Shown here: positions 8,176 through 46,751 of the stretch, in pieces
Layout: the number at the start of each line of letters is the position of its first letter
How positions within the stretch are numbered: the stretch's first letter is position 1
Source of the DNA: an uncultured bacterium
GTDB taxonomy: Bacteria > Patescibacteriota > Minisyncoccia > Moranbacterales > UBA2206
DNA length: 64,000 nucleotides
Reading direction: 5' to 3'
NCBI GenBank assembly: GCA_903841185.1
Contig: CAIMIV010000003.1
Location: 773-64,772 of the forward strand
Made by a program: the position numbers and the translations under genes
The notes under the pieces: model-generated
Database searches by the model: none
What the model saw: the letters and a program-made list of their open reading frames with translations, nothing else
Told to the model about the DNA's origin: nothing

Positions 8176-8919
8176 ATGTTAAAAAAGGACTTAGAAGTCA
8201 TCGGATTGGACGATAGCGAGGCTAGCGCCTATTTGGCTTTGCTGGAATTGGACGAAGCCTCCATCGCGCAAATTGCCGCCAAAGCCAAACTAAAGCGACC
8301 GACCACCTACCTGATTGTGGAATCTCTGAAAGAAAAAGGTTTAGTGGGTATGGTCAAAAGAAAGAAAAAGACTTTGTTTCTGGCGGAAGACCCCAGAAAA
8401 ATTCTGGATATGCTGGAAGAACGCAAACAAAAGATGAATCGCATCATGCCGGAGCTGCTGTCGTTTGCCAATGTGTTGGATAAAAAACCAGGTATTCGTT
8501 ATTTCGAAGGTTGGGAAGGCATCAAGGATGTCTATCGTGACACCTTGAATTATCCCGAGCAAGAATTTCAGGCTTTTTTCTCGGAAGTTTTTTTGACGCG
8601 CTTTGACGAGAAGTTTTTTACCGAATTTTATTATGATCAGCGTCTGCAAAAAAGAATTTTCGTGCGGGCGATTTTGCCCGACAATGCCGACACACGCGAA
8701 TTGGTTACGCATGACCAAGCGCAACTGCGCAAATCAAAATTGGCACCAGTCGGCATGTTTCATATGAATATTGAAATCAACACCTACGGCAAAGACAAGG
8801 TGGGGATTATTTCTTTCGAAGAAGATTTCGCCCTAATCATCGAAAGTAAAAAAATTCACGACAGCCTCAAAAGTCTGTTCGAACTAACTTGGAGCTTGTT
8901 GCCGGAGAATAAAGGATAG
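8176..8919 (+). CDS. TrmB-family HTH transcriptional regulator, paralog P3
   Basis: 'DSEASAYLALLELDEASIAQIAAKAKLKRPTTYLIVESLKEKGLV' plus C-terminal 'FALIIESKKIHDSLKSLFELTWSLL'. Confidence 0.7.
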   Translation: MLKKDLEVIGLDDSEASAYLALLELDEASIAQIAAKAKLKRPTTYLIVESLKEKGLVGMVKRKKKTLFLAEDPRKILDMLEERKQKMNRIMPELLSFANVLDKKPGIRYFEGWEGIKDVYRDTLNYPEQEFQAFFSEVFLTRFDEKFFTEFYYDQRLQKRIFVRAILPDNADTRELVTHDQAQLRKSKLAPVGMFHMNIEINTYGKDKVGIISFEEDFALIIESKKIHDSLKSLFELTWSLLPENKG

Positions 8920-8994: not shown

Positions 8995-10173
8995 TTATAA
9001 GTATTTCTTATTATTGAGTTCGTCTGGCAGATAGGCTTGGTCTGCGCTATTTTCAATAGGCGTATATTTATAGCCCTTGCCATAGTCCAAAGCTTTCATC
9101 AGCTTGGTGGGGGCATTGCGCAAATGGAGAGGCACCGGCAAATTGCCGAATTTTTCCACATCTTGTTTAGCTTTGTTATAGACGCTGTAGGCCGTGATGT
9201 CCTTTTTGGATTTGGCCAGATAGATGACGCAGTGAGCCAGGTGGACATTGCATTCCGGGTAGCCGAGCTTGTGGCAGGCGTCAAAGGTGGCGTTGGCCAG
9301 GAGCAGGGCACTGTTATTGGCTAGACCGATGTCTTCGGAAGCGAAACGCACCAGGCGCCGCGCAATAAATAGCGGGTCCTCGCCGCCTTCCACCATCCGC
9401 GCCAGCCAATAGACAGCGGCATCCGGATTGCCGCCGCGCATGGACTTGTGGAGGGCGGAAATGATATTGTAATGTTCCTCACCGGACTTGTCATAGAGCA
9501 GATGCGATTTTTGCAACACCTCATGGATGAGTTCGGGCGTGATGGGGCGCGCTTGGTTGACGCAGGCTTCCAGGGTGTTGAGCGCCATACGCGCGTCACC
9601 ATTAGAGAGATTAGCCAGTAGCTTGATGGTGTCATCGGACAAAACTATTTTTTTGGAGGAGCTTATTTTGGAAACGGCGCGGCGGATAATTTTTTCCAAA
9701 TCAACGGCGGAAAGTTTTTGCAAAACAAAAACCCGGGTGCGGGAAACAAGCGCCGAATTGACTTCGAAACTGGGATTTTCCGTAGTGGCTCCGATGAGAA
9801 TAAGTGTCCCGTCTTCGACATAGGGCAGAAGGGCGTCTTGCTGGGCTTTGTTCCAGCGGTGGATTTCATCAATAAAAAGAATGGTTTTCAATTGCGTGAG
9901 TTGATTTTCTTTGGCTTGGGCAATAATTTCCAAAAGGATTTTTTTGCCGGAGGAGACGGCGCTGATTTTGAGGAAGGCCGAATGGGTGGTGCGAGCAATG
10001 ATATGAGCGAGAGTGGTTTTGCCGGAACCTGGCGGCCCCCACAAAATCATAGATGGCAACTGATCTTCTTGGATAGCGCGAAAAAGATAGGAATTTTTTC
10101 CAACTATTTTTTCTTGGCCAAAAAAATCGCTCAGATTTTCGGGGCGGATAAGTTCGGGGAGAGGTGTTGACAT
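8995..10173 (-). CDS. rarA: Replication-associated recombination protein A (AAA+ ATPase RarA/MgsA)
   Basis: 'ILWGPPGSGKTTLA' Walker A, 'ILFIDEIHRWNKAQQDALLPYVEDG', C-terminal MgsA helical domain. Confidence 0.85.
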   Translation of the reverse strand: MSTPLPELIRPENLSDFFGQEKIVGKNSYLFRAIQEDQLPSMILWGPPGSGKTTLAHIIARTTHSAFLKISAVSSGKKILLEIIAQAKENQLTQLKTILFIDEIHRWNKAQQDALLPYVEDGTLILIGATTENPSFEVNSALVSRTRVFVLQKLSAVDLEKIIRRAVSKISSSKKIVLSDDTIKLLANLSNGDARMALNTLEACVNQARPITPELIHEVLQKSHLLYDKSGEEHYNIISALHKSMRGGNPDAAVYWLARMVEGGEDPLFIARRLVRFASEDIGLANNSALLLANATFDACHKLGYPECNVHLAHCVIYLAKSKKDITAYSVYNKAKQDVEKFGNLPVPLHLRNAPTKLMKALDYGKGYKYTPIENSADQAYLPDELNNKKYL

Positions 10174-11343: not shown

Positions 11344-11389
11344 GCCGCGGTGGTCCTCCTTCGCTAAAGCTACGGATGGACAACGGGTG
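11344..11389 (+). ncRNA. Conserved tRNA-Leu-upstream element, copy 1 (unknown function)
   Basis: GCCGCGGTGGTCCTCCTTCGCTAAAGCTACGGATGGACAACGGGTG. The first 10 nt are identical to the 5' end of the tRNA-Leu 57 nt downstream. Homologous to copies at 21286 and 13175. Confidence 0.4.
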
Positions 11390-11446
11390 TTTTTGAAAAC
11401 TAATATTGTACAATAGAAAGGGCATTACGAAATTTTAATGCAGTAT

Positions 11447-11530: not shown

Positions 11531-11608
11531 CTTCGATTCATTCGCTGAAAGCGAATTCACTCAGTGTAAACACATTTAATGTTCAATGCTGAGGTATAGT
11601 ATAATAAT

Positions 11609-12556
11609 ATGCAAAAAATAGTAATCGATGAAGACGGCGCTGGTGAGCGTATTGATAAATTCCTGAAAGAGGGATTTTTTTTAAGTGAGGAGATCACCCG
11701 CGGGGATATCATCCGCAGTATTCGGGAAGGGGCGATTATGGTGAATGAAAAAGCTATTAAACCTAGCTATATCTTAAAAGAAGGAGATGTGGTTGTGATT
11801 GACATCATCAAAGAAAAAGAAGAATTGATTCCCAACACCAAAATCCAACTAACGCTTGTGTATCAAAATGAAGATTTTCTGATTATCAATAAGCAGGCTG
11901 GCTTGCAAGTGCATCCCAGTGACAGTGAAAAAGAGGCGACATTGGTAAATGCATTGATTGTGGCCTTCCCGGAGATCAAGAATATTAATGATGGCTCGCA
12001 AGACAGCTGGATGCGTCCTGGGATTGTGCATCGCTTGGACAAAGACACGAGTGGGATTATGGTAGTGGCTAGAAATAAAAAAACCTTCGATGAATTGAAG
12101 CGCCAATTTGCGGACAGGGAAATTACTAAAAATTATGTGGCTTTAGTATATGGTAATTTAGAAAACAAGACGGGGATAGTGGATCTGCCGATTGCCAGAG
12201 CGGCTAGTTTTAAGAAACAAAAAATTGCCCGCGGAAAAACCAAAGGCATCGCCAGGCAGGCCATCACGGAATATAGCGTATTGAAACGCTACGCGGAGTT
12301 TGATTTTGTGGAGGCGATCCCGAAAACTGGCCGGATGCATCAAATCCGAGTGCATTTGGCGTCGCTGGAGCATCCTATTGTGGGAGACTGGAAATATCGG
12401 CGGAAGAACATTGTTCAAGTTGACGCGGTGCGAAGGCACCTGTTGCACGCCCAAAAATTGAGTTTTACGTTGGCAGGGCAGCAATTTGATTTCATCGCCG
12501 AATTACCGGAGGATTTTAGAGGATTCCTGCAGGGGCTTGACGAAAAGCAGATATAA
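11609..12556 (+). CDS. rluD: RluA-family 23S rRNA pseudouridine synthase (RluD-like, with S4 domain)
   Basis: Catalytic 'HRLDKDTSGIMVVARN' motif; N-terminal S4-like region. Confidence 0.8.
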   Translation: MQKIVIDEDGAGERIDKFLKEGFFLSEEITRGDIIRSIREGAIMVNEKAIKPSYILKEGDVVVIDIIKEKEELIPNTKIQLTLVYQNEDFLIINKQAGLQVHPSDSEKEATLVNALIVAFPEIKNINDGSQDSWMRPGIVHRLDKDTSGIMVVARNKKTFDELKRQFADREITKNYVALVYGNLENKTGIVDLPIARAASFKKQKIARGKTKGIARQAITEYSVLKRYAEFDFVEAIPKTGRMHQIRVHLASLEHPIVGDWKYRRKNIVQVDAVRRHLLHAQKLSFTLAGQQFDFIAELPEDFRGFLQGLDEKQI

Positions 12557-12655: not shown

Positions 12656-13165
12656 ATGCAAAAGAAAGTAATCGAATTCAACAATGCACTACGAGCGAAG
12701 GAAATGCCCGAATTTAACGCTGGGGATGTGGTGAAAGTTCACAGAAAAATCAAGGAAGGTGACAAAGAAAGAGTCCAGATTTTCGAGGGCTTGATTATCG
12801 CTGTCAAAGGCGGACAAAGTTCTTCTCCAACCATTACCGTGCGAAAAGTTTCCAGCGGGGTGGGTGTGGAGTTGATTGTACCTATCTTTTCTCCAAACAT
12901 CGAAAAGATTGAAATGGTGAAGAAAGCTAAGGTCAGAAGAGCTAAACTATATTATCTACGTGGACTGACAGCGAAGAAGAGTCGTATGAAGTATAAGAAT
13001 GTTCCTGTGATCGTGCCGGGAGAAAAAACAGTCGTGGAGGAAGCAGTAGTAGAAGAAGCTGTGGTGGTAGAAGAGAAAACAGCCAAAGTAGTGGAGAAAG
13101 CTGTGATTGAAAAAAAGGCAGTCGTAAAAAAAGTGACTGAGAAAAAAGTAGCGGAGAAAAAATAA
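12656..13165 (+). CDS. rplS: 50S ribosomal protein L19 with Lys/Glu/Val-rich C-terminal extension
   Basis: 'FNAGDVVKVHRKIKEGDKERVQIFEGLIIAVKG...TVRKVSSGVGVE...RRAKLYYLR' is a classic L19 core. A ~60-aa KE-rich tail follows. Confidence 0.85.
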   Translation: MQKKVIEFNNALRAKEMPEFNAGDVVKVHRKIKEGDKERVQIFEGLIIAVKGGQSSSPTITVRKVSSGVGVELIVPIFSPNIEKIEMVKKAKVRRAKLYYLRGLTAKKSRMKYKNVPVIVPGEKTVVEEAVVEEAVVVEEKTAKVVEKAVIEKKAVVKKVTEKKVAEKK

Positions 13166-13174
13166 TCCAACGAC

Positions 13175-13224
13175 GCCTTCGTGGCCCGTCTCGCCCGAGG
13201 CGTGCTCGCCGAGGCGGATGGAAT
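13175..13224 (+). ncRNA. Conserved tRNA-Leu-upstream element, copy 3 (diverged, with internal 14-nt tandem duplication)
   Basis: GCCTTCGTGGCCCGTCTCGCCCGAGGCGTGCTCGCCGAGGCGGATGGAATGG shares TGGCCC...CGCC..GAGGC..GGATGG with copies 1 and 2. Its first 7 nt complement the 3' acceptor CGAAGGC at 13442. Confidence 0.35.
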
Positions 13225-13285
13225 GGTATATTCACCCCGCACCATTTCACATTTCGCAGTAAACTGGTATGATATGTTTAGTTGG

Positions 13286-13367
13286 GGGAGTATGGTGGAA
13301 TGGTATACACACATGCTTGAGGTGCATGGGTCGTAAGACCGTGAGAGTTCGAGTCTCTCTATTCCCA
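13286..13367 (+). tRNA. tRNA-Leu (anticodon GAG)
   Basis: Acceptor GGGAGTA/TATTCCC (one G-U), anticodon loop TTGAGGT, long variable arm, T-loop TTCGAGT. Confidence 0.8.
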
Positions 13368-13384
13368 CGAGTGGAAAATGGTGC

Positions 13385-13449
13385 TGGGGCAAGCATGCAA
13401 GAGGCACATGGATTGTAAGGTCGTGCGAGTTCGAGTCTCGCCGAAGGCA
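13385..13449 (+). pseudogene. 5'-truncated/degenerate tRNA-Leu(GAG)-like copy
   Basis: Intact T-arm GCGAG-TTCGAGT-CTCGC and 3' acceptor CGAAGGC-A. The anticodon region 'CATGC AAGAGGC ACATG' is degenerate (no U33) and no 5' acceptor strand is present locally. Confidence 0.5.
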
Positions 13450-13536
13450 CCCAAAGCCTGCCCGATTTTCTTGCTTTGTTATTTATTTAAAGATAGTTAT
13501 CGGCATACTAGATAATAAAGGCAGAAGATGGGGCAG

Positions 13537-13840: not shown

Positions 13841-14503
13841 ATGAAAATAAAAGAGGAAAAAAATAAAGCATTTGATCTCCGGAGGGAGGGCAAGAGCTAC
13901 AGGCAAATAGCAGAGCTTTTGGATATAAGTAAAAGTACGTTATCTGGTTGGTTTAGGGATGTTGATTGGTCTCAAGATATCAAAAAACAGTTAATTGAAA
14001 AGTCAAAAGGGGCTAGTCGAAAAAGATTGCTTCAGCTAAATGATCTGAAAAAGAAAAGATGGAGCGAATGTTATGTAAGAGCAGAAAAAGAGGCAATTAC
14101 TGAATTTGAAAATTTAAAAAAAGACAAATTGTTTATAGCGGGCATGGCATTATATTGGGGAGAGGGAGATAAAATATGGAAGAATGGCATTATTAGAATA
14201 TCCAATACAGATGAAAAGATGTTGCGAGTGTTTAATGAATTTTTACAAAAAATTTGCAAGGTGGAGAGAGAAAAAATTAGAGCGGGAATTTTACTGTATC
14301 CAGACTTGGATTCGGAGGAGCGCTTGAAATTTTGGAGTGAAAGTATTAGAATATCTAAGGAGAGGTTTTTTAAATCGACTGTGATACAGGGAAGGCATAA
14401 AACTAAAAAAACAGGCAGCGGAGTGTGTATTGTTTCAGTAGGTGATAAATATTTGAAAAAGAAGTTATTGACTTGGCTAGATTTGTTCATTGGAGAATTT
14501 TAA
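13841..14503 (+). CDS. HTH-domain protein with LAGLIDADG-like core (possible free-standing homing-endonuclease-like gene)
   Basis: N-terminal 'GKSYRQIAELLDISKSTLSGW' HTH; central 'LFIAGMALYWGEGDK' resembles a LAGLIDADG motif. Sits between the tRNA-Phe/Val and tRNA-Gly genes. Confidence 0.4.
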   Translation: MKIKEEKNKAFDLRREGKSYRQIAELLDISKSTLSGWFRDVDWSQDIKKQLIEKSKGASRKRLLQLNDLKKKRWSECYVRAEKEAITEFENLKKDKLFIAGMALYWGEGDKIWKNGIIRISNTDEKMLRVFNEFLQKICKVEREKIRAGILLYPDLDSEERLKFWSESIRISKERFFKSTVIQGRHKTKKTGSGVCIVSVGDKYLKKKLLTWLDLFIGEF

Positions 14504-14585: not shown

Positions 14586-14616
14586 AAAAAGTTCTAGGTT
14601 TAGCCTAGAACTTTTT
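14586..14616 (+). terminator. Rho-independent terminator after tRNA-Gly(GCC)
   Basis: AAAAAGTTCTAGG-tttag-CCTAGAACTTTTT. Confidence 0.7.
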
Positions 14617-14625
14617 GATTTGCTA

Positions 14626-14667
14626 GCGGGATGGGGAATCGAACGGGTAGGAATGAGACAATCCCGC
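14626..14667 (-). pseudogene. Decayed antisense tRNA-like remnant
   Basis: Minus strand reads GCGGGAT...CCCG-TTCGATT-CCCC-ATCCCGC: paired 7-nt ends and a T-loop but a non-pairing T-stem. The same 20-nt core GGGATGGGGAATCGAACGGG recurs at 46641. Confidence 0.4.
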
Positions 14668-14750: not shown

Positions 14751-14770
14751 GAATTCCCCCTACCCGCTCA
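14751..14770 (+). repeat. Direct repeat of the tRNA-Gly 3' end (partial copy R2)
   Basis: GAATTCCCCCTACCCGCTCA equals the last 19 nt of tRNA-Gly(GCC) plus CA. Confidence 0.6.
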
Positions 14771-20320: not shown

Positions 20321-20408
20321 CTTTGGTCATGCTGAAAACTTGTTTAGAACCAGTTTCGGCAGGGCTAACTAAGAATTAACAACCCCAGCACCATGGGCGA
20401 CTGCGCCC

Positions 20409-21044
20409 ATGACTACCAATTATCAAGAATTTGCGCCGTTGGCTCGATTCATGATGCGGGGTGAACAATTAATGCGTATCATTAGTCTATTTGTGGCCCT
20501 ACCGATACTGTGGGCAACCTTTATGCCTCAATATAAGGCATTGGCGTCAGAAGTAACAATTGCTGATGAAACAAAAATAAATTTTGAAATACAAGAGCAT
20601 ATGAGTATAGCTGATGGGATTATCCATCTAGCGCAACTCGACATCCCAATGATGGTTCCTGTTGATGAGCCAGTGAAAAGTGAAGAGGAGTTGAAAAGAG
20701 AAAAGGTGTTGGCTGTTTGGAAGACGAAGCAGTTGTCTAAATGGGAAAATCTTCCGAAAGGACAATTCACTATCAATGCCTCTGCCTATACGGCTGCTGC
20801 TGATGAATGCGGTTGGAATACCGGAATCACGGCTAGCGGTTTGCAGGTAAAAGAAAACAGAACCATCGCTTGTCCTCCCGAATATCCTTTTGGGGCCAAG
20901 ATAAAAATTGAGGGTTATGGATTGTTCGTTTGTGAAGATCGTGGAGGTGCTATCAAAAAAAATCATGTGGACATTTATATGAAAACCAAGCAAGAAGCCT
21001 TTGCTTTCGGTCGCAGAAATTTGTTGGCAGAAATTACTATCTAA
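20409..21044 (+). CDS. 3D-domain (MltA-like/RlpA-like) cell-wall-associated protein
   Basis: 'NASAYTAAADECGWNTGITASG...GGAIKKNHVDIY' matches the three-Asp 3D/DPBB domain. N-terminal TM. Confidence 0.65.
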   Translation: MTTNYQEFAPLARFMMRGEQLMRIISLFVALPILWATFMPQYKALASEVTIADETKINFEIQEHMSIADGIIHLAQLDIPMMVPVDEPVKSEEELKREKVLAVWKTKQLSKWENLPKGQFTINASAYTAAADECGWNTGITASGLQVKENRTIACPPEYPFGAKIKIEGYGLFVCEDRGGAIKKNHVDIYMKTKQEAFAFGRRNLLAEITI

Positions 21045-21285: not shown

Positions 21286-21330
21286 ACATAATCCTGCCCG
21301 GGTGGCCCTCCTGCGCCAAGGCTACGGATG
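21286..21330 (+). ncRNA. Conserved tRNA-Leu-upstream element, copy 2
   Basis: GCCCGGGTGGCCCTCCTGCGCCAAGGCTACGGATGGGCGAGGTTG. The first 10 nt are identical to the 5' end of tRNA-Leu(TAA) 58 nt downstream. Confidence 0.4.
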
Positions 21331-21387
21331 GGCGAGGTTGTAAATGCATTTCGAGCTAAATAGATATTAGGAGTAGTACGAAGTTTT

Positions 21388-21470
21388 AACGAAATATGCC
21401 CGGGTGGTGAAATGGTAGACACAAGGGACTTAAAATCCCTCGATCGAAAGGTCATGCGAGTTCGAGTCTC
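21388..21470 (+). tRNA. tRNA-Leu (anticodon TAA)
   Basis: Acceptor GCCCGGG/CCCGGGC, anticodon stem AGGGA/TCCCT with loop CTTAAAA, long variable arm, T-loop TTCGAGT. Confidence 0.85.
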
Positions 21471-46628: not shown

Positions 46629-46640
46629 TTATTTTATTAG

Positions 46641-46660
46641 AGGGATGGGGAATCGAACGG
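46641..46660 (-). pseudogene. Decayed antisense tRNA-like remnant (paralog of 14626..14667)
   Basis: GGGATGGGGAATCGAACGGG is identical to the core at 14631. No intact acceptor partner. Confidence 0.35.
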
Positions 46661-46751
46661 GCCACGTCGCTCGCGAGTAATGCCAAGTCCTCGCTTGAGT
46701 TTATGGATAAATTACGTTAGAATAGTAAAATAAATAAGGAATATTTTTCAC

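Follow-up and report, generated by a model that had tools for sequence, protein, structure and literature searches.

A tRNA-Leu(GAG) gene lying inside an older one points to in situ displacement by a small ORF-less cassette in Moranbacterales

MITE-like elements such as the Correia elements of Neisseria, REP/REPIN sequences and the Rickettsia palindromic elements are small and ORF-less, with inverted repeats that fold to a long hairpin; they are inserted in leaders, in-frame in coding sequences and in RNA genes, and are variably present among relatives. Phage and ICE integrases land in tRNA genes, restore the resident gene with a short segment identical to it, and leave one direct repeat. Group I introns interrupt bacterial tRNA-Leu(UAA) in the anticodon loop, and xenologous displacement in situ, like tRNA remolding or turnover, puts a divergent version of an essential gene in the place of the original. 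In the tiny genomes of CPR bacteria, most tRNA genes exist as one copy; therefore, any disruption of such a gene should be lethal. Disrupted tRNA genes in archaea include split tRNAs as well as non-canonical introns, which in Thermoproteales move from one tRNA to another by transposition (PMC10714607, PMC4090602). These archaeal genes resemble the locus described here in their non-anticodon interruption, in insert ends that pair at the junction and in mobile-like behaviour. However, the archaeal inserts are removed by the splicing endonuclease at a bulge-helix-bulge and the outer tRNA is functional, whereas here the outer tRNA decays and the product lies inside the insert. Full-text literature searches turned up no published account of nested or cassette-borne tRNA genes from CPR bacteria.

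Here, we analyzed a 64,000-nt stretch of DNA from an uncultured bacterium of the Moranbacterales (the window), in which one tRNA-Leu(GAG) gene sits between the parts of another. We consider it probable that a tRNA gene was displaced in situ by a small, ORF-less, horizontally spreading cassette. A resident type-A tRNA-Leu(GAG) directly after rplS is split by the cassette at position 26/27; the inner type-B tRNA would have taken over, and the outer gene has picked up damaging substitutions and a 34-nt hairpin. Insertion into a single-copy tRNA gene would persist only if the cargo restored the function that the insertion destroyed. As in phage and ICE integration, a tRNA gene serves as landing site, incoming tRNA sequence would preserve function, and partial copies remain; unlike there, a whole divergent tRNA replaces the resident, both old halves stay, and the insert is 159 nt long with no recombinase. 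The outcome is that of xenologous displacement, but here both the vehicle and the relic are visible and the displacement would run through the gene itself.

The ancestral state is preserved in loci L001, L002, L004 and L018, in which an uninterrupted type-A tRNA-Leu(GAG), with acceptor GCCTTCG/CGAAGGC, lies 5–10 nt 3' of rplS. L001 represents the closest relative (RluA identity 89%), and its downstream flank matches that of the window too. On the + strand of the window, nt 1–10 of this gene (acceptor GCCTTCG followed by TGG) are found at 13175..13184 as GCCTTCGTGG, a single occurrence in the window that equals the first 10 nt of the intact gene in all four loci. The D loop and 3' D stem up to position 26 follow at 13219..13234 (+ strand; TGGAATGGTATATTCA, ancestral ..TATACACA; 14/16 identical to L001). 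Positions 27–73 lie at 13394..13449 (+ strand; 51/56 identical to L001) and comprise a damaged anticodon arm (CATGC AAGAGGC ACATG), the variable arm, a perfect T arm, CGAAGGC and the discriminator A; the 3' end, CGAAGGCA at 13442-13449, has further window copies only at 12431 and 60806. When both inserts were removed, the outer pieces aligned end to end with the intact L001 gene (75/82 identical, 7/82 changed), and ARAGORN called them tRNA-Leu(GAG); with the hairpin retained, there was no call. An earlier note, made from these letters, had paired the 5' acceptor at 13175 with a 3' half 270 nt away and proposed a comparison of orthologous loci. That comparison bears the pairing out: the decamer and the 13442 3' end belong to the same gene in L001, L002, L004 and L018. 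Because the orthologous loci hold the intact gene, the 7-nt complement 270 nt apart is not a matter of chance, and sequence homology identifies 13175-13184 and 13394-13449 as opposite ends of a single ancestral tRNA-Leu(GAG) gene. The break lies at tRNA position 26/27 (13234/13235), between the D arm and the anticodon stem, and not directly after the decamer; the GC stretch at that place is a secondary hairpin, present in L020 and not in L019. Likewise, the downstream copy does not start at 13385, since homology begins at 13394 (CATGC) and 13375-13389 is the right repeat of the insert. The nested locus is identical in L014 and L015, two independent assemblies of the window strain, which excludes an assembly artefact. 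In L014, what looks like a 155-nt insertion between RluA and L19 was rejected as a strain polymorphism, being a run of N at a scaffold gap.

The outer gene is damaged. Its anticodon loop AAGAGGC lacks U33 beside a perfect T arm, as already noticed; in addition, pair 31–39 is lost, leaving a C–A mismatch that closes the loop, and the D stem is weaker. Neither ARAGORN nor Rfam matched the outer copy as it stands in 13100-13520, and ARAGORN with the intron option and a lowered threshold still gave a single tRNA, in agreement with the earlier statement that the downstream copy has no local 5' acceptor. The outer copy thus has syntenic homology to an intact orthologue, has lost function-critical features and carries two insertions (34 nt and 159 nt), as a tRNA pseudogene would. 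The outer halves are presumably non-functional relics that decay at about the neutral rate. The contrary reading, that the outer gene still works, with an intron-like insert or as a split tRNA whose halves are joined by the repeat helix, giving two tRNAs per precursor, draws on the minimum-energy fold of 13175-13449 (z = -2.6), which forms both the inner cloverleaf and the repeat helix and pairs the acceptor strands and T arm of the outer gene. It also draws on L019 and the Val(CAC) cassette of L010, where the outer copy is an intact cloverleaf after cassette removal. We give it a very slight chance, because in the window U33 and the closing pair are lost and the D arm holds a 34-nt hairpin, in L009 palindromes interrupt both the D loop and the T loop, and the outer copies of L010 Phe and L001 Leu(CAG) have decayed beyond recognition. 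These damaged copies indicate that the outer copy is under no sustained selection and, unlike in the archaeal systems, is not kept as the product. The bulge-helix-bulge motif is absent at the window junctions, no group I intron family matched in Rfam at E up to 10 in 13100-13520, and we know of no protein-dependent tRNA splicing pathway in bacteria. As with the group I introns of tRNA-Leu(UAA), a bacterial tRNA-Leu is broken by a structured insert; unlike them, the break is at position 26/27 and the insert is 159 nt.

The insert occupies 13235-13393, has no ORF and is bounded by 13–15-nt inverted termini (CCCCGCACCATTT / AAAATGGTGCTGGGG). The left repeat, CCCCGCACCATTT (13235..13247, + strand), is complementary to 13375-13389 and paired in the minimum-energy fold; 12–13 of its 13 positions are kept in four nested alleles, compared with 58–82% conservation of the adjoining spacer. 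The right repeat, AAAATGGTGCTGGGG (13375-13389), is followed by a 4-nt end, CAAG (together 13375..13393, + strand), and 14–15 of its 15 positions are kept in the four alleles. The junction thus consists of a 13-bp helix with one bulged base; on its 3' side alone, this is followed by CAAG, 4 nt that stay unpaired. A promoter-like site at 13246..13273 (+ strand) comprises TTCACA, 16 nt and TATGAT, with TG ahead of the -10 hexamer (10/12 matches); it ends 12 nt 5' of the inner tRNA, and TGGTAT[GT]AT is kept in 4/4 nested alleles. ARAGORN and Rfam on 13100-13520 agreed on one tRNA, an intact tRNA-Leu(GAG) at 13286..13367 (13286-13367/8; + strand) with acceptor GGGAGTA/TATTCCC, just as the first reading of the sequence had it; it scored 53.1 bits against a gathering score of 29 and has a class II variable arm and A73. 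An Rfam gathering-score search of the whole window and an E-value search of 13100-13520 matched the nested locus to tRNAs only. Each of its 24 pairs is retained in all four alleles, and for 3 pairs both partners have changed. These are the features of a functional bacterial tRNA. The type-B gene presumably provides the cell's tRNA-Leu(GAG), and would be transcribed from the insert's own extended -10 promoter and released by normal end processing.

The inner tRNA and the resident gene differ at 17 positions, every one of them in a stem and offset by a compensating change, and the type-B acceptor, variable-arm and T stems depart from type A; in its acceptor and T stems, type B is similar to the tRNA-Leu(CAG) genes of the same clade. 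Positions 8–44, on the other hand, are identical to the resident gene, and in the window and L020 the inner and outer copies have the same D-loop length variant, which is consistent with conversion of one copy by the other or with an origin that is in part local. The identity over positions 8–44, together with the 80% identity of 13312-13357 and 13394-13439 in an 82-nt register and the existence of partial 5' tRNA-Leu duplications in the group (for example, at the L003 GAG locus), would suit a resident tRNA-Leu(GAG) that was duplicated locally in tandem and then lost one copy to decay, one of the two explanations offered initially. We regard this as very improbable. The old 5' part lies upstream and the old 3' part downstream of the new gene, an arrangement that is nested and not tandem, and the junctions are a 13–15-nt inverted repeat that also occurs on tRNA-less elements. 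Moreover, the 17 compensated stem differences, the same type B in four lineages and relatives with type A alone all speak against it, as do the Val, Pro and Phe cassettes of L010, which likewise diverge strongly from their outer copies in acceptor and T stems. The other initial explanation, a functional tRNA-Leu inserted into a pre-existing module, was right about the insertion but not about its host, which is an ordinary tRNA-Leu(GAG) after rplS and not an element-spacer-tRNA arrangement.

Because tRNA genes are classic integration sites, and partial tRNA-Gly 3' copies resembling att remnants lie nearby (14604-14644 and 14753-14770), the locus might be thought the scar of a larger element that an integrase placed in the tRNA gene and that was later almost wholly deleted. 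Such a scar would leave one rebuilt tRNA and a direct partial repeat, not a foreign tRNA between the old halves; there is no integrase, and the same 155-nt unit has identical boundaries in four lineages. No att-site duplication was found at the insert, whose 159 nt hold no ORF and whose flanks are complementary halves, not repeats. We find this origin scarcely credible. A phage origin was also considered and rejected, as no viral contig carried the tRNA core or the terminus pair; the right terminus alone gave 27 matches without a left partner in viral contigs, about chance level.

The GC-rich hairpin in the outer D arm (13185..13218, 34 nt, + strand) is absent from the intact orthologues and from nested L019, and is predicted to fold as a hairpin. 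It contains the internal tandem duplication reported earlier, which is indeed present in the sequence (CTCGCCCGAGGCGTG at 13190-13204 and CTCGCCGAGGCGG at 13205-13217); TRF did not report this 13–15-nt duplication, which is too short to reach its score threshold. L020 has the hairpin with 2 substitutions, tandem duplication included; in its place, L009 shows another palindrome, 20 nt long and shifted by two bases to the 3' side. This distribution marks the hairpin as an insertion separate from, and later than, the 159-nt insert. The region from 13175 had been described as a copy of an upstream element. A limited likeness stands: the upstream elements of tRNA-Leu(TAG) and tRNA-Leu(TAA) and the GAG locus each consist of a copy of tRNA nt 1–10, then a hairpin after G10 ending ..CGGA|TGG. 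The decamer, however, is nt 1–10 of the old gene itself. Neither the tRNA-Leu(TAG) nor the tRNA-Leu(TAA) locus contains an inverted-repeat cassette or a 3' relic. Their spacers of about 70 nt are homologous to one another (p ~ 0.007); similarity that would make them decayed tRNA or a duplicated promoter region did not exceed that of shuffles (p = 0.26–0.71), and that idea was dropped. Also rejected, since the orthologues show the decamer to be the old gene's own 5' end, were a regulatory module of decamer and hairpin whose 5' end covaries with the acceptor, and a leader peptide (MPRWSSFAKATDG-like reading, 11342 onward). For annotation, the outer halves and their hairpins should not be called regulatory "upstream elements".

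The same nested architecture occurs in L020, L009 and L019, three further Moranbacteria lineages. An RluA scan of the genome collection returned 9 loci, 3 of which duplicated loci already in the comparison. RluA identity puts the window in a group with L001, L018 and L002, which are all ancestral, and the nested L009, L019 and L020 in one with L003, L004 and L007, none of which is nested. The window allele has derived characters (hairpin, A7–T66, AGAG T stem) in common with L020, not with its own relatives. The L019 outer halves are a local type-A variant (GTCTTCG, CGGG/CCCG T stem) that is the same as in L007, suggesting a separate insertion event. A quadruple change in the outer anticodon loop is found in the window and L009, and the hairpin in the window and L020; with such conflicting characters among the four alleles, no single simple history fits.

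Homing could produce this patchy distribution of the nested allele without transposition of the cassette: a free-standing endonuclease of the tRNA cluster would cut type-A genes, and repair would copy in the immune nested allele. The window is like L001 in the flanks directly outside the old tRNA and like L020 in the allele itself, and the same tRNA cluster contains mobile-looking ORFs variably present among relatives, a 220-aa HTH protein (13841-14503) and, in L002, an 86-aa GIY-YIG. These ORFs do not track the allele, however: the 220-aa ORF accompanies ancestral alleles (L002, L018) and is missing in nested L020. Moreover, the inner tRNA equals the target over positions 8–44, so the same cleavage site would be kept unless recognition reaches the acceptor, and the same termini occur at unrelated non-tRNA sites, which suggests that the repeats themselves move. 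We therefore consider homing unlikely.

The displacement reading gains from recurrence with other tRNAs. Repeat-bounded cassettes inside cognate relics were found for Leu(CAG) in L001 and for Val(CAC), Pro(CGG) and Phe(GAA) in L010, and flanking inverted repeats of at least 12 nt were found at 8 of 85 tRNAs, against 0.75 expected from shuffled flanks. If a cassette survives only with a cargo that replaces the tRNA, each would be expected inside a relic of its own cognate tRNA. Five cases, together with this argument on which insertions survive, suggest a cognate-only pattern; tRNA-less members lie outside tRNA genes, so that the family need not prefer tRNA targets. The locus would then show an exchange route for single-copy tRNA genes, in which incoming DNA lands in the very gene that it replaces. 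If general, the pattern would provide a concrete vehicle for horizontal turnover of tRNA alleles, and would explain both the odd half-tRNAs that tRNA finders see beside intact genes and the pile-up of small palindromic elements in tRNA relics. More tentatively, the cassettes may be selfish tRNA genes, an active ORF-less mobile family with tRNA cargo that inserts into the cognate gene, destroys it and so makes the host dependent, although we think this rather less probable than not. If true, this would amount to gene drive or addiction for tRNA alleles, driving tRNA turnover and horizontal exchange across Parcubacteria. In a bolder variant of this idea, the outer tRNA may still be usable in fresh cassettes (L010 Val(CAC) and L019 Leu(GAG)), in two pieces or after processing.

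The cassette appears to belong to an inverted-repeat-bounded Parcubacteria family with termini (A)CCCCGCAC.. / ..GTGCNGGGG(T) that spreads horizontally. Four tRNA-less elements have these termini as well, in keeping with MITEs, and presence/absence with a clean empty site is seen at the tRNA locus, at 20382-20462 and in a metK leader. A metagenome scan with both termini returned three elements of about 150 nt without tRNA, one of which lies between a SAM-riboswitch terminator and metK, at a site that is empty in L027. In the consensus fold of these three elements, 18/49 pairs covary, and the covariance model built from them matches the window cassette (E = 5e-4); a match in L027 (14067-14215) was judged spurious, being inside coding sequence. 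The tRNA-less elements match no Rfam family. The window contains two family members only. The second, found by the terminal-repeat scan at 20382..20462 (no strand assigned; ACCCCAGCACCATG ... CATGATGCGGGGT; fold z = -3.4), has no tRNA cargo and lies 9 nt 5' of ATG 20472, which is probably the true start codon of a 3D-domain protein; the homologous site is empty in L003, L004 and L019, where ..AATTAAGAACAATTAATG runs on without a break. At the right end, the pattern GGGG[TC][GA]A[AG] is common to the insert and most of the L010 cassettes and tRNA-less elements, with departures in L001 (GGGACAA), the L010 bare hairpin (CGTG) and L023 (TGAC).

Unlike known MITE-like elements, the cassettes carry an entire tRNA gene, which in the Leu(GAG) version has a promoter of its own, and they sit in the cognate tRNA gene; no target-site duplication, conserved flanking tetranucleotide or partner transposase was found. 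A by-eye comparison of the junctions of 10 elements gave no consistent direct repeat, no transposase, integrase or autonomous element with the same termini was found, and no terminus pair encloses an ORF in about 290 kb of CPR loci. A tblastn search of L021, L023 and L024 against the other collected loci found nothing. Small palindromes in these genomes behave like the described palindromic elements; for example, a hairpin lies in-frame in the L009 RluA gene. As structured elements of about 150 nt in mRNA leaders just 5' of start codons, the tRNA-less members might affect expression. In L021, which the names of MetK homologues place near Sungbacteria, Rfam finds a SAM riboswitch adjoining the element and a DUF3800-IX RNA elsewhere.

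Immediately downstream of rplS, the window carries a complete, divergent tRNA gene on an inverted-repeat-bounded insertion within the resident cognate gene. By the source names of its nearest RluA homologues, the window derives from a CPR bacterium of the Moranbacteria (Parcubacteria). rplS (L19) terminates at 13165, and the decamer GCCTTCGTGG, reported in the earlier note as the start of an upstream element, begins 10 bases on, at 13175, and occurs as a single copy across the 64 kb of the window. ARAGORN and Rfam identified one tRNA in 13100–13520, the intact tRNA-Leu(GAG) at 13286–13367 that the note had placed there (53 bits; acceptor GGGAGTA/TATTCCC). No further tRNA was found in this interval, even with the ARAGORN intron option and a lowered threshold, and neither program recovered a normal 5' acceptor for the tRNA-like 3' portion that follows the intact gene. 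This portion ends with CGAAGGCA at 13449 and has the perfect T arm and the damaged anticodon loop (AAGAGGC) originally described. The internal tandem duplication was likewise present, with units at 13190–13204 and 13205–13217.

Syntenic regions of relatives were obtained via homologues of the neighbouring RluA gene. In L001 (RluA 89% identical), L018, L002 and L004, an intact tRNA-Leu(GAG) lies 5–10 nt past the end of rplS (10 nt for L001); it starts with GCCTTCGTGG and ends with CGAAGGCA, in line with the earlier note's pairing of the two, and the downstream flank of the L001 gene is that of the window (caaagcctgcc.gattttcttgc...). When 13185–13218 and 13235–13393 were removed from the window, the remaining 82 nt gave an ungapped alignment with the L001 gene that differed at 7 positions, and ARAGORN called this reconstruction a tRNA-Leu(GAG). 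Therefore, a single ancestral gene, referred to as type A henceforth, supplied both the decamer and the 3' piece as its two ends. Duplication of the gene in tandem has no appreciable probability as an alternative origin. As L014 and L015, assembled independently from the same strain, have an identical locus, it is not an assembly artefact. The insertion history read from these sequences is solid. L19 itself (12656–13165) has a Lys/Glu/Val-rich C-terminal extension of ~55 aa that differs in length and sequence between relatives.

The nested arrangement was also found in three other lineages (L020, L009 and L019), and alignment of the window with these fixed the boundaries of the insert. The old gene is unbroken up to position 26, most clearly in L019 (GTCTTCGTGGTGGAATTGGTATACACA), and its 5' part occupies 13175–13234. 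The 159-nt insert (13235–13393) starts with CCCCGCACCATT[TC], followed by a spacer of 35–38 nt with the conserved motif TGGTAT[GT]AT and by a complete tRNA-Leu(GAG) of a second type, type B (GGGAGT[AG] ... [CT]ATTCCCA); a further 4–7 nt separate this from the complementary repeat AAAATGGTGC[AT]GGGG, which is followed by four bases ([CT]AA[AG]). The sequence at CATGC, the anticodon stem, is again that of the old gene, whose 3' part runs from 13394 to 13449. A 34-nt GC hairpin after G10 (13185–13218) is an event separate from the insert: it is absent in L019 and common to the window and L020, tandem duplication included. In L009, two bases beyond the hairpin site, a 20-nt palindrome (CCTGCCTGCCGGTAGGCAGG) is found instead, and the old gene has another in its T loop.

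All 24 predicted pairs of the inner tRNA are kept in all four nested alleles, with none broken, and three of them are kept by two-sided change (A7-U66 to G7-C66, one T-stem pair and one variable-arm pair). The 17 positions at which the inner tRNA differs from type A are all compensated and all lie in the acceptor, variable-arm and T stems. A promoter-like site in the insert (TTCACA-16-TATGAT with an upstream TG; 10 of 12 positions matching) ends 12 nt ahead of the tRNA, and its extended -10 is kept in the four alleles. The inner gene is conserved, and the outer gene decays: in the window, it no longer has U33 or the 31-39 pair, its D stem is weakened and it contains the inserted hairpin, and its 7/82 substitutions approximate, as judged by eye, the divergence of the adjacent intergenic flank from L001. 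In the minimum-energy fold of 13175–13449, the outer acceptor helix and T arm form together with the hairpin, a 13-bp repeat helix and the inner cloverleaf. Production of a functional tRNA, split or intron-bearing, from the outer halves has no appreciable probability. We conclude that the inner gene is most probably the working tRNA-Leu(GAG), inferring its expression, and that the outer halves are relics.

The nested allele is patchily distributed. RluA identities define two groups: the window falls with L001, L018 and L002, all uninterrupted at tRNA-Leu(GAG), and the other group mixes nested L009, L019 and L020 with un-nested L003, L004 and L007. The window allele and L020 have in common the hairpin, an A7-T66 pair and an AGAG T stem, although the window's immediate flanks outside the old tRNA are L001-like. 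Because the outer halves of L019 carry the local type-A variant (GTCTTCG, CGGG/CCCG T stem, like L007), this locus suggests either that the insertion occurred there independently or that recombination involved extremely short tracts. A quadruple change in the outer anticodon loop occurs in the window and L009 only, in conflict with the other characters; therefore, the alleles also recombined or were converted. The inner tRNA is identical to the type-A gene over positions 8–44, a hint that the copies underwent gene conversion or that the inner one is in part of local origin.

The termini of the cassette, as we call the insert, define a wider family that is polymorphic for presence and absence. 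When metagenomes were scanned for the two termini, correctly spaced, the matches were the nested alleles and three tRNA-less elements of ~150 nt, sited outside tRNA genes on the minus strand (L021 4500–4648, L023 496–646 and L024 916–1069), with the same ends, ACCCCGCACCATTTTT ... AAAAATGGTGCTGGGGT. The L021 element lies between a SAM riboswitch terminator and the metK start codon in a Sungbacteria-like genome; in L027, a complete genome, this site is empty, since the start codon follows only 8 nt after the terminator. The three elements gave no Rfam match; they adopt a common multi-stem fold with covariation at 18 of its 49 pairs, and one folds at z = -6. A covariance model built from them matched the window cassette at E = 5e-4, and the other nested alleles too. 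A further scan for the termini detected a second member in the window, an 81-nt element with inverted repeats (20382–20462), 9 nt 5' of the conserved start (ATGCGTATCATTAGT, codon at 20472) of a 3D-domain protein; its site lacks the insertion in L003, L004 and L019. The GGGG(T) end ~10 nt ahead of the ATG, here and at L021 metK, might serve as a ribosome-binding site. The ORF call for the 3D-domain protein starts at 20409, inside the element. L027 (the complete Sungbacteria genome) has an insertion of ~120 nt at ~9717–9837, with inverted repeats CCCCCCACCTTCCC / GGGAAGGTGGGGGG, in the SAM-riboswitch region 5' of metK.

The recurrence of nesting with other tRNAs is striking. In L001, an intact tRNA-Leu(CAG) flanked by CCCAGCACTATC / GATAGTGCGGG lies between the decayed 5' and 3' halves left where an older tRNA-Leu(CAG) was broken in its anticodon loop. 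L010 has three nested cassettes within 3.5 kb, each with inverted repeats and cognate relics. Its tRNA-Val(CAC) (8440–8640; CCCGCCCACCTTTG / CAAAGGTGAGCGGG) sits in the D loop of an older tRNA-Val(CAC), and because that gene is otherwise intact, a recent event is suggested. Its tRNA-Pro(CGG) (9415–9605; CGCCCCGTCACCAAAA / TTTTGGTGACGGGGTG) interrupts the anticodon loop of an older tRNA, so the Pro identity of this relic rests on the resemblance of its acceptor (CGGAGCG/CGCTCCG) to that of the window tRNA-Pro (CGGGGCG); ARAGORN called its reconstructions Leu(aag) and undetermined. Its tRNA-Phe(GAA) (11672–11925; CCCCGCACTAAAATTTTGCC / GGCAAAATTTAGTACGGGG) lies in a decayed tRNA-Phe, and a bare hairpin of 40 nt sharing these termini is found in that relic too. 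The repeats of the L010 cassettes abut the tRNA, leaving no space for an internal promoter. Wherever both copies are readable, new and old differ chiefly in the acceptor and T stems. Across the loci examined, inverted repeats no shorter than 12 nt flank 8 of 85 tRNAs, compared with the 0.75 that shuffled flanks predict. Two types of tRNA-Leu(TAG) occur as well, with GCCGCGG and GGGGATG acceptors (L007 9830–9993, L009 1330–1495, L019 51–133, L020 9918–10000); the GGGGATG type is directly 3' of the other type's 5' relic in L007 and L009 and stands without a relic in L019 and L020. The acceptor and T stems of type-B Leu tRNAs resemble those of tRNA-Leu(CAG).

From these few cases, we infer that the cassette family is mobile or spread by recombination, and that an insertion into a single-copy tRNA gene would survive only when its cargo complements the lost function, which would account for the cognate-only pattern. 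No target-site duplication was seen at the junctions examined, and an integrase scar has no appreciable probability. Homing driven by an endonuclease is the sole rival of appreciable probability; no mobilising enzyme for the family was found among the loci examined, and no cassette on viral contigs. Inverted-repeat elements, tRNA genes as landing sites and in-situ displacement are familiar; their combination is not, and the full-text literature, as far as it was covered, describes neither a tRNA gene nested in its cognate nor cassettes of this kind for CPR bacteria.

The same survival filter would explain why small palindromes without cargo pile up in tRNA relics. The 20-nt palindrome CCTGCCTGCCGGCAGGCAGG, absent from the window, has 10 copies in the relatives' loci (L003 11552, L007 14257, L009 1349/3081/3316, L020 9403 and others), of which 7 lie in dead tRNA fragments, in the D or T loop. 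In the window, tRNA-Leu(TAG) and tRNA-Leu(TAA) are each preceded by an element of ~100 nt (11344–11446 and 21296–21396) that opens with an exact copy of the first 10–11 nt of its own tRNA, beginning exactly at +1 (GCCGCGGTGGT / GCCCGGGTGG), and continues with a hairpin ([TC]CCTCCT.CGC.AA.GCTACGGA) and a ~70-nt spacer before the intact tRNA. Both are insertions too, because they are missing in several relatives: the TAG element in L018, L003 and L004, where the promoter region directly adjoins the tRNA, and the TAA element in L003, L004, L007, L019 and L010. Homology links the two spacers, but neither is homologous to tRNA or to the promoter region. These loci have neither inverted-repeat cassette nor 3' relic, and share with 13175–13218 only the layout of first ten bases and hairpin after G10. 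Their hairpin is a mobile palindrome; a copy (CTCCTCCTTCGCTAAAGCTCCGGAGGA) lies in frame within the RluA coding sequence of L009 (~1560–1593), adding 10 codons. In L020, another palindrome (TTCGCCAGCTGGCGGA, 11425–11440) is in frame in the C-terminal extension of L19. Both resemble Rickettsia palindromic elements.

Other features were seen around the tRNA cluster. The 77 nt separating tRNA-Leu(TAG) from the RluA start codon (11532–11608) are missing in L001 and L018, whose tRNA directly adjoins the ATG; they contain CTCAGTGTAAACACAT, also found 3' of tRNA-Leu(CAG) in L009. Between tRNA-Val and tRNA-Gly, a 220-aa ORF (13841–14503), recognised only by its N-terminal HTH (HTH_23, HTH_38), is present in L002, L018 and L019 and absent in L001, L003, L004 and L020. 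L002 has an 86-aa GIY-YIG ORF between tRNA-Phe and tRNA-Val, and both ORFs look like mobile or homing-type genes. Each of the two tRNA-Gly genes has, past its terminator, an inverted fragment similar to the 3' end of a tRNA (GTTCGATTCCCCATCCC[GT]CTA, minus strand), and tRNA-Gly(GCC) is also followed by a direct partial copy of its own 3' end; these tRNA-like fragments (14604–14644, 14753–14770 and 46639–46662) may represent att-site remnants or old copies of tRNAs.
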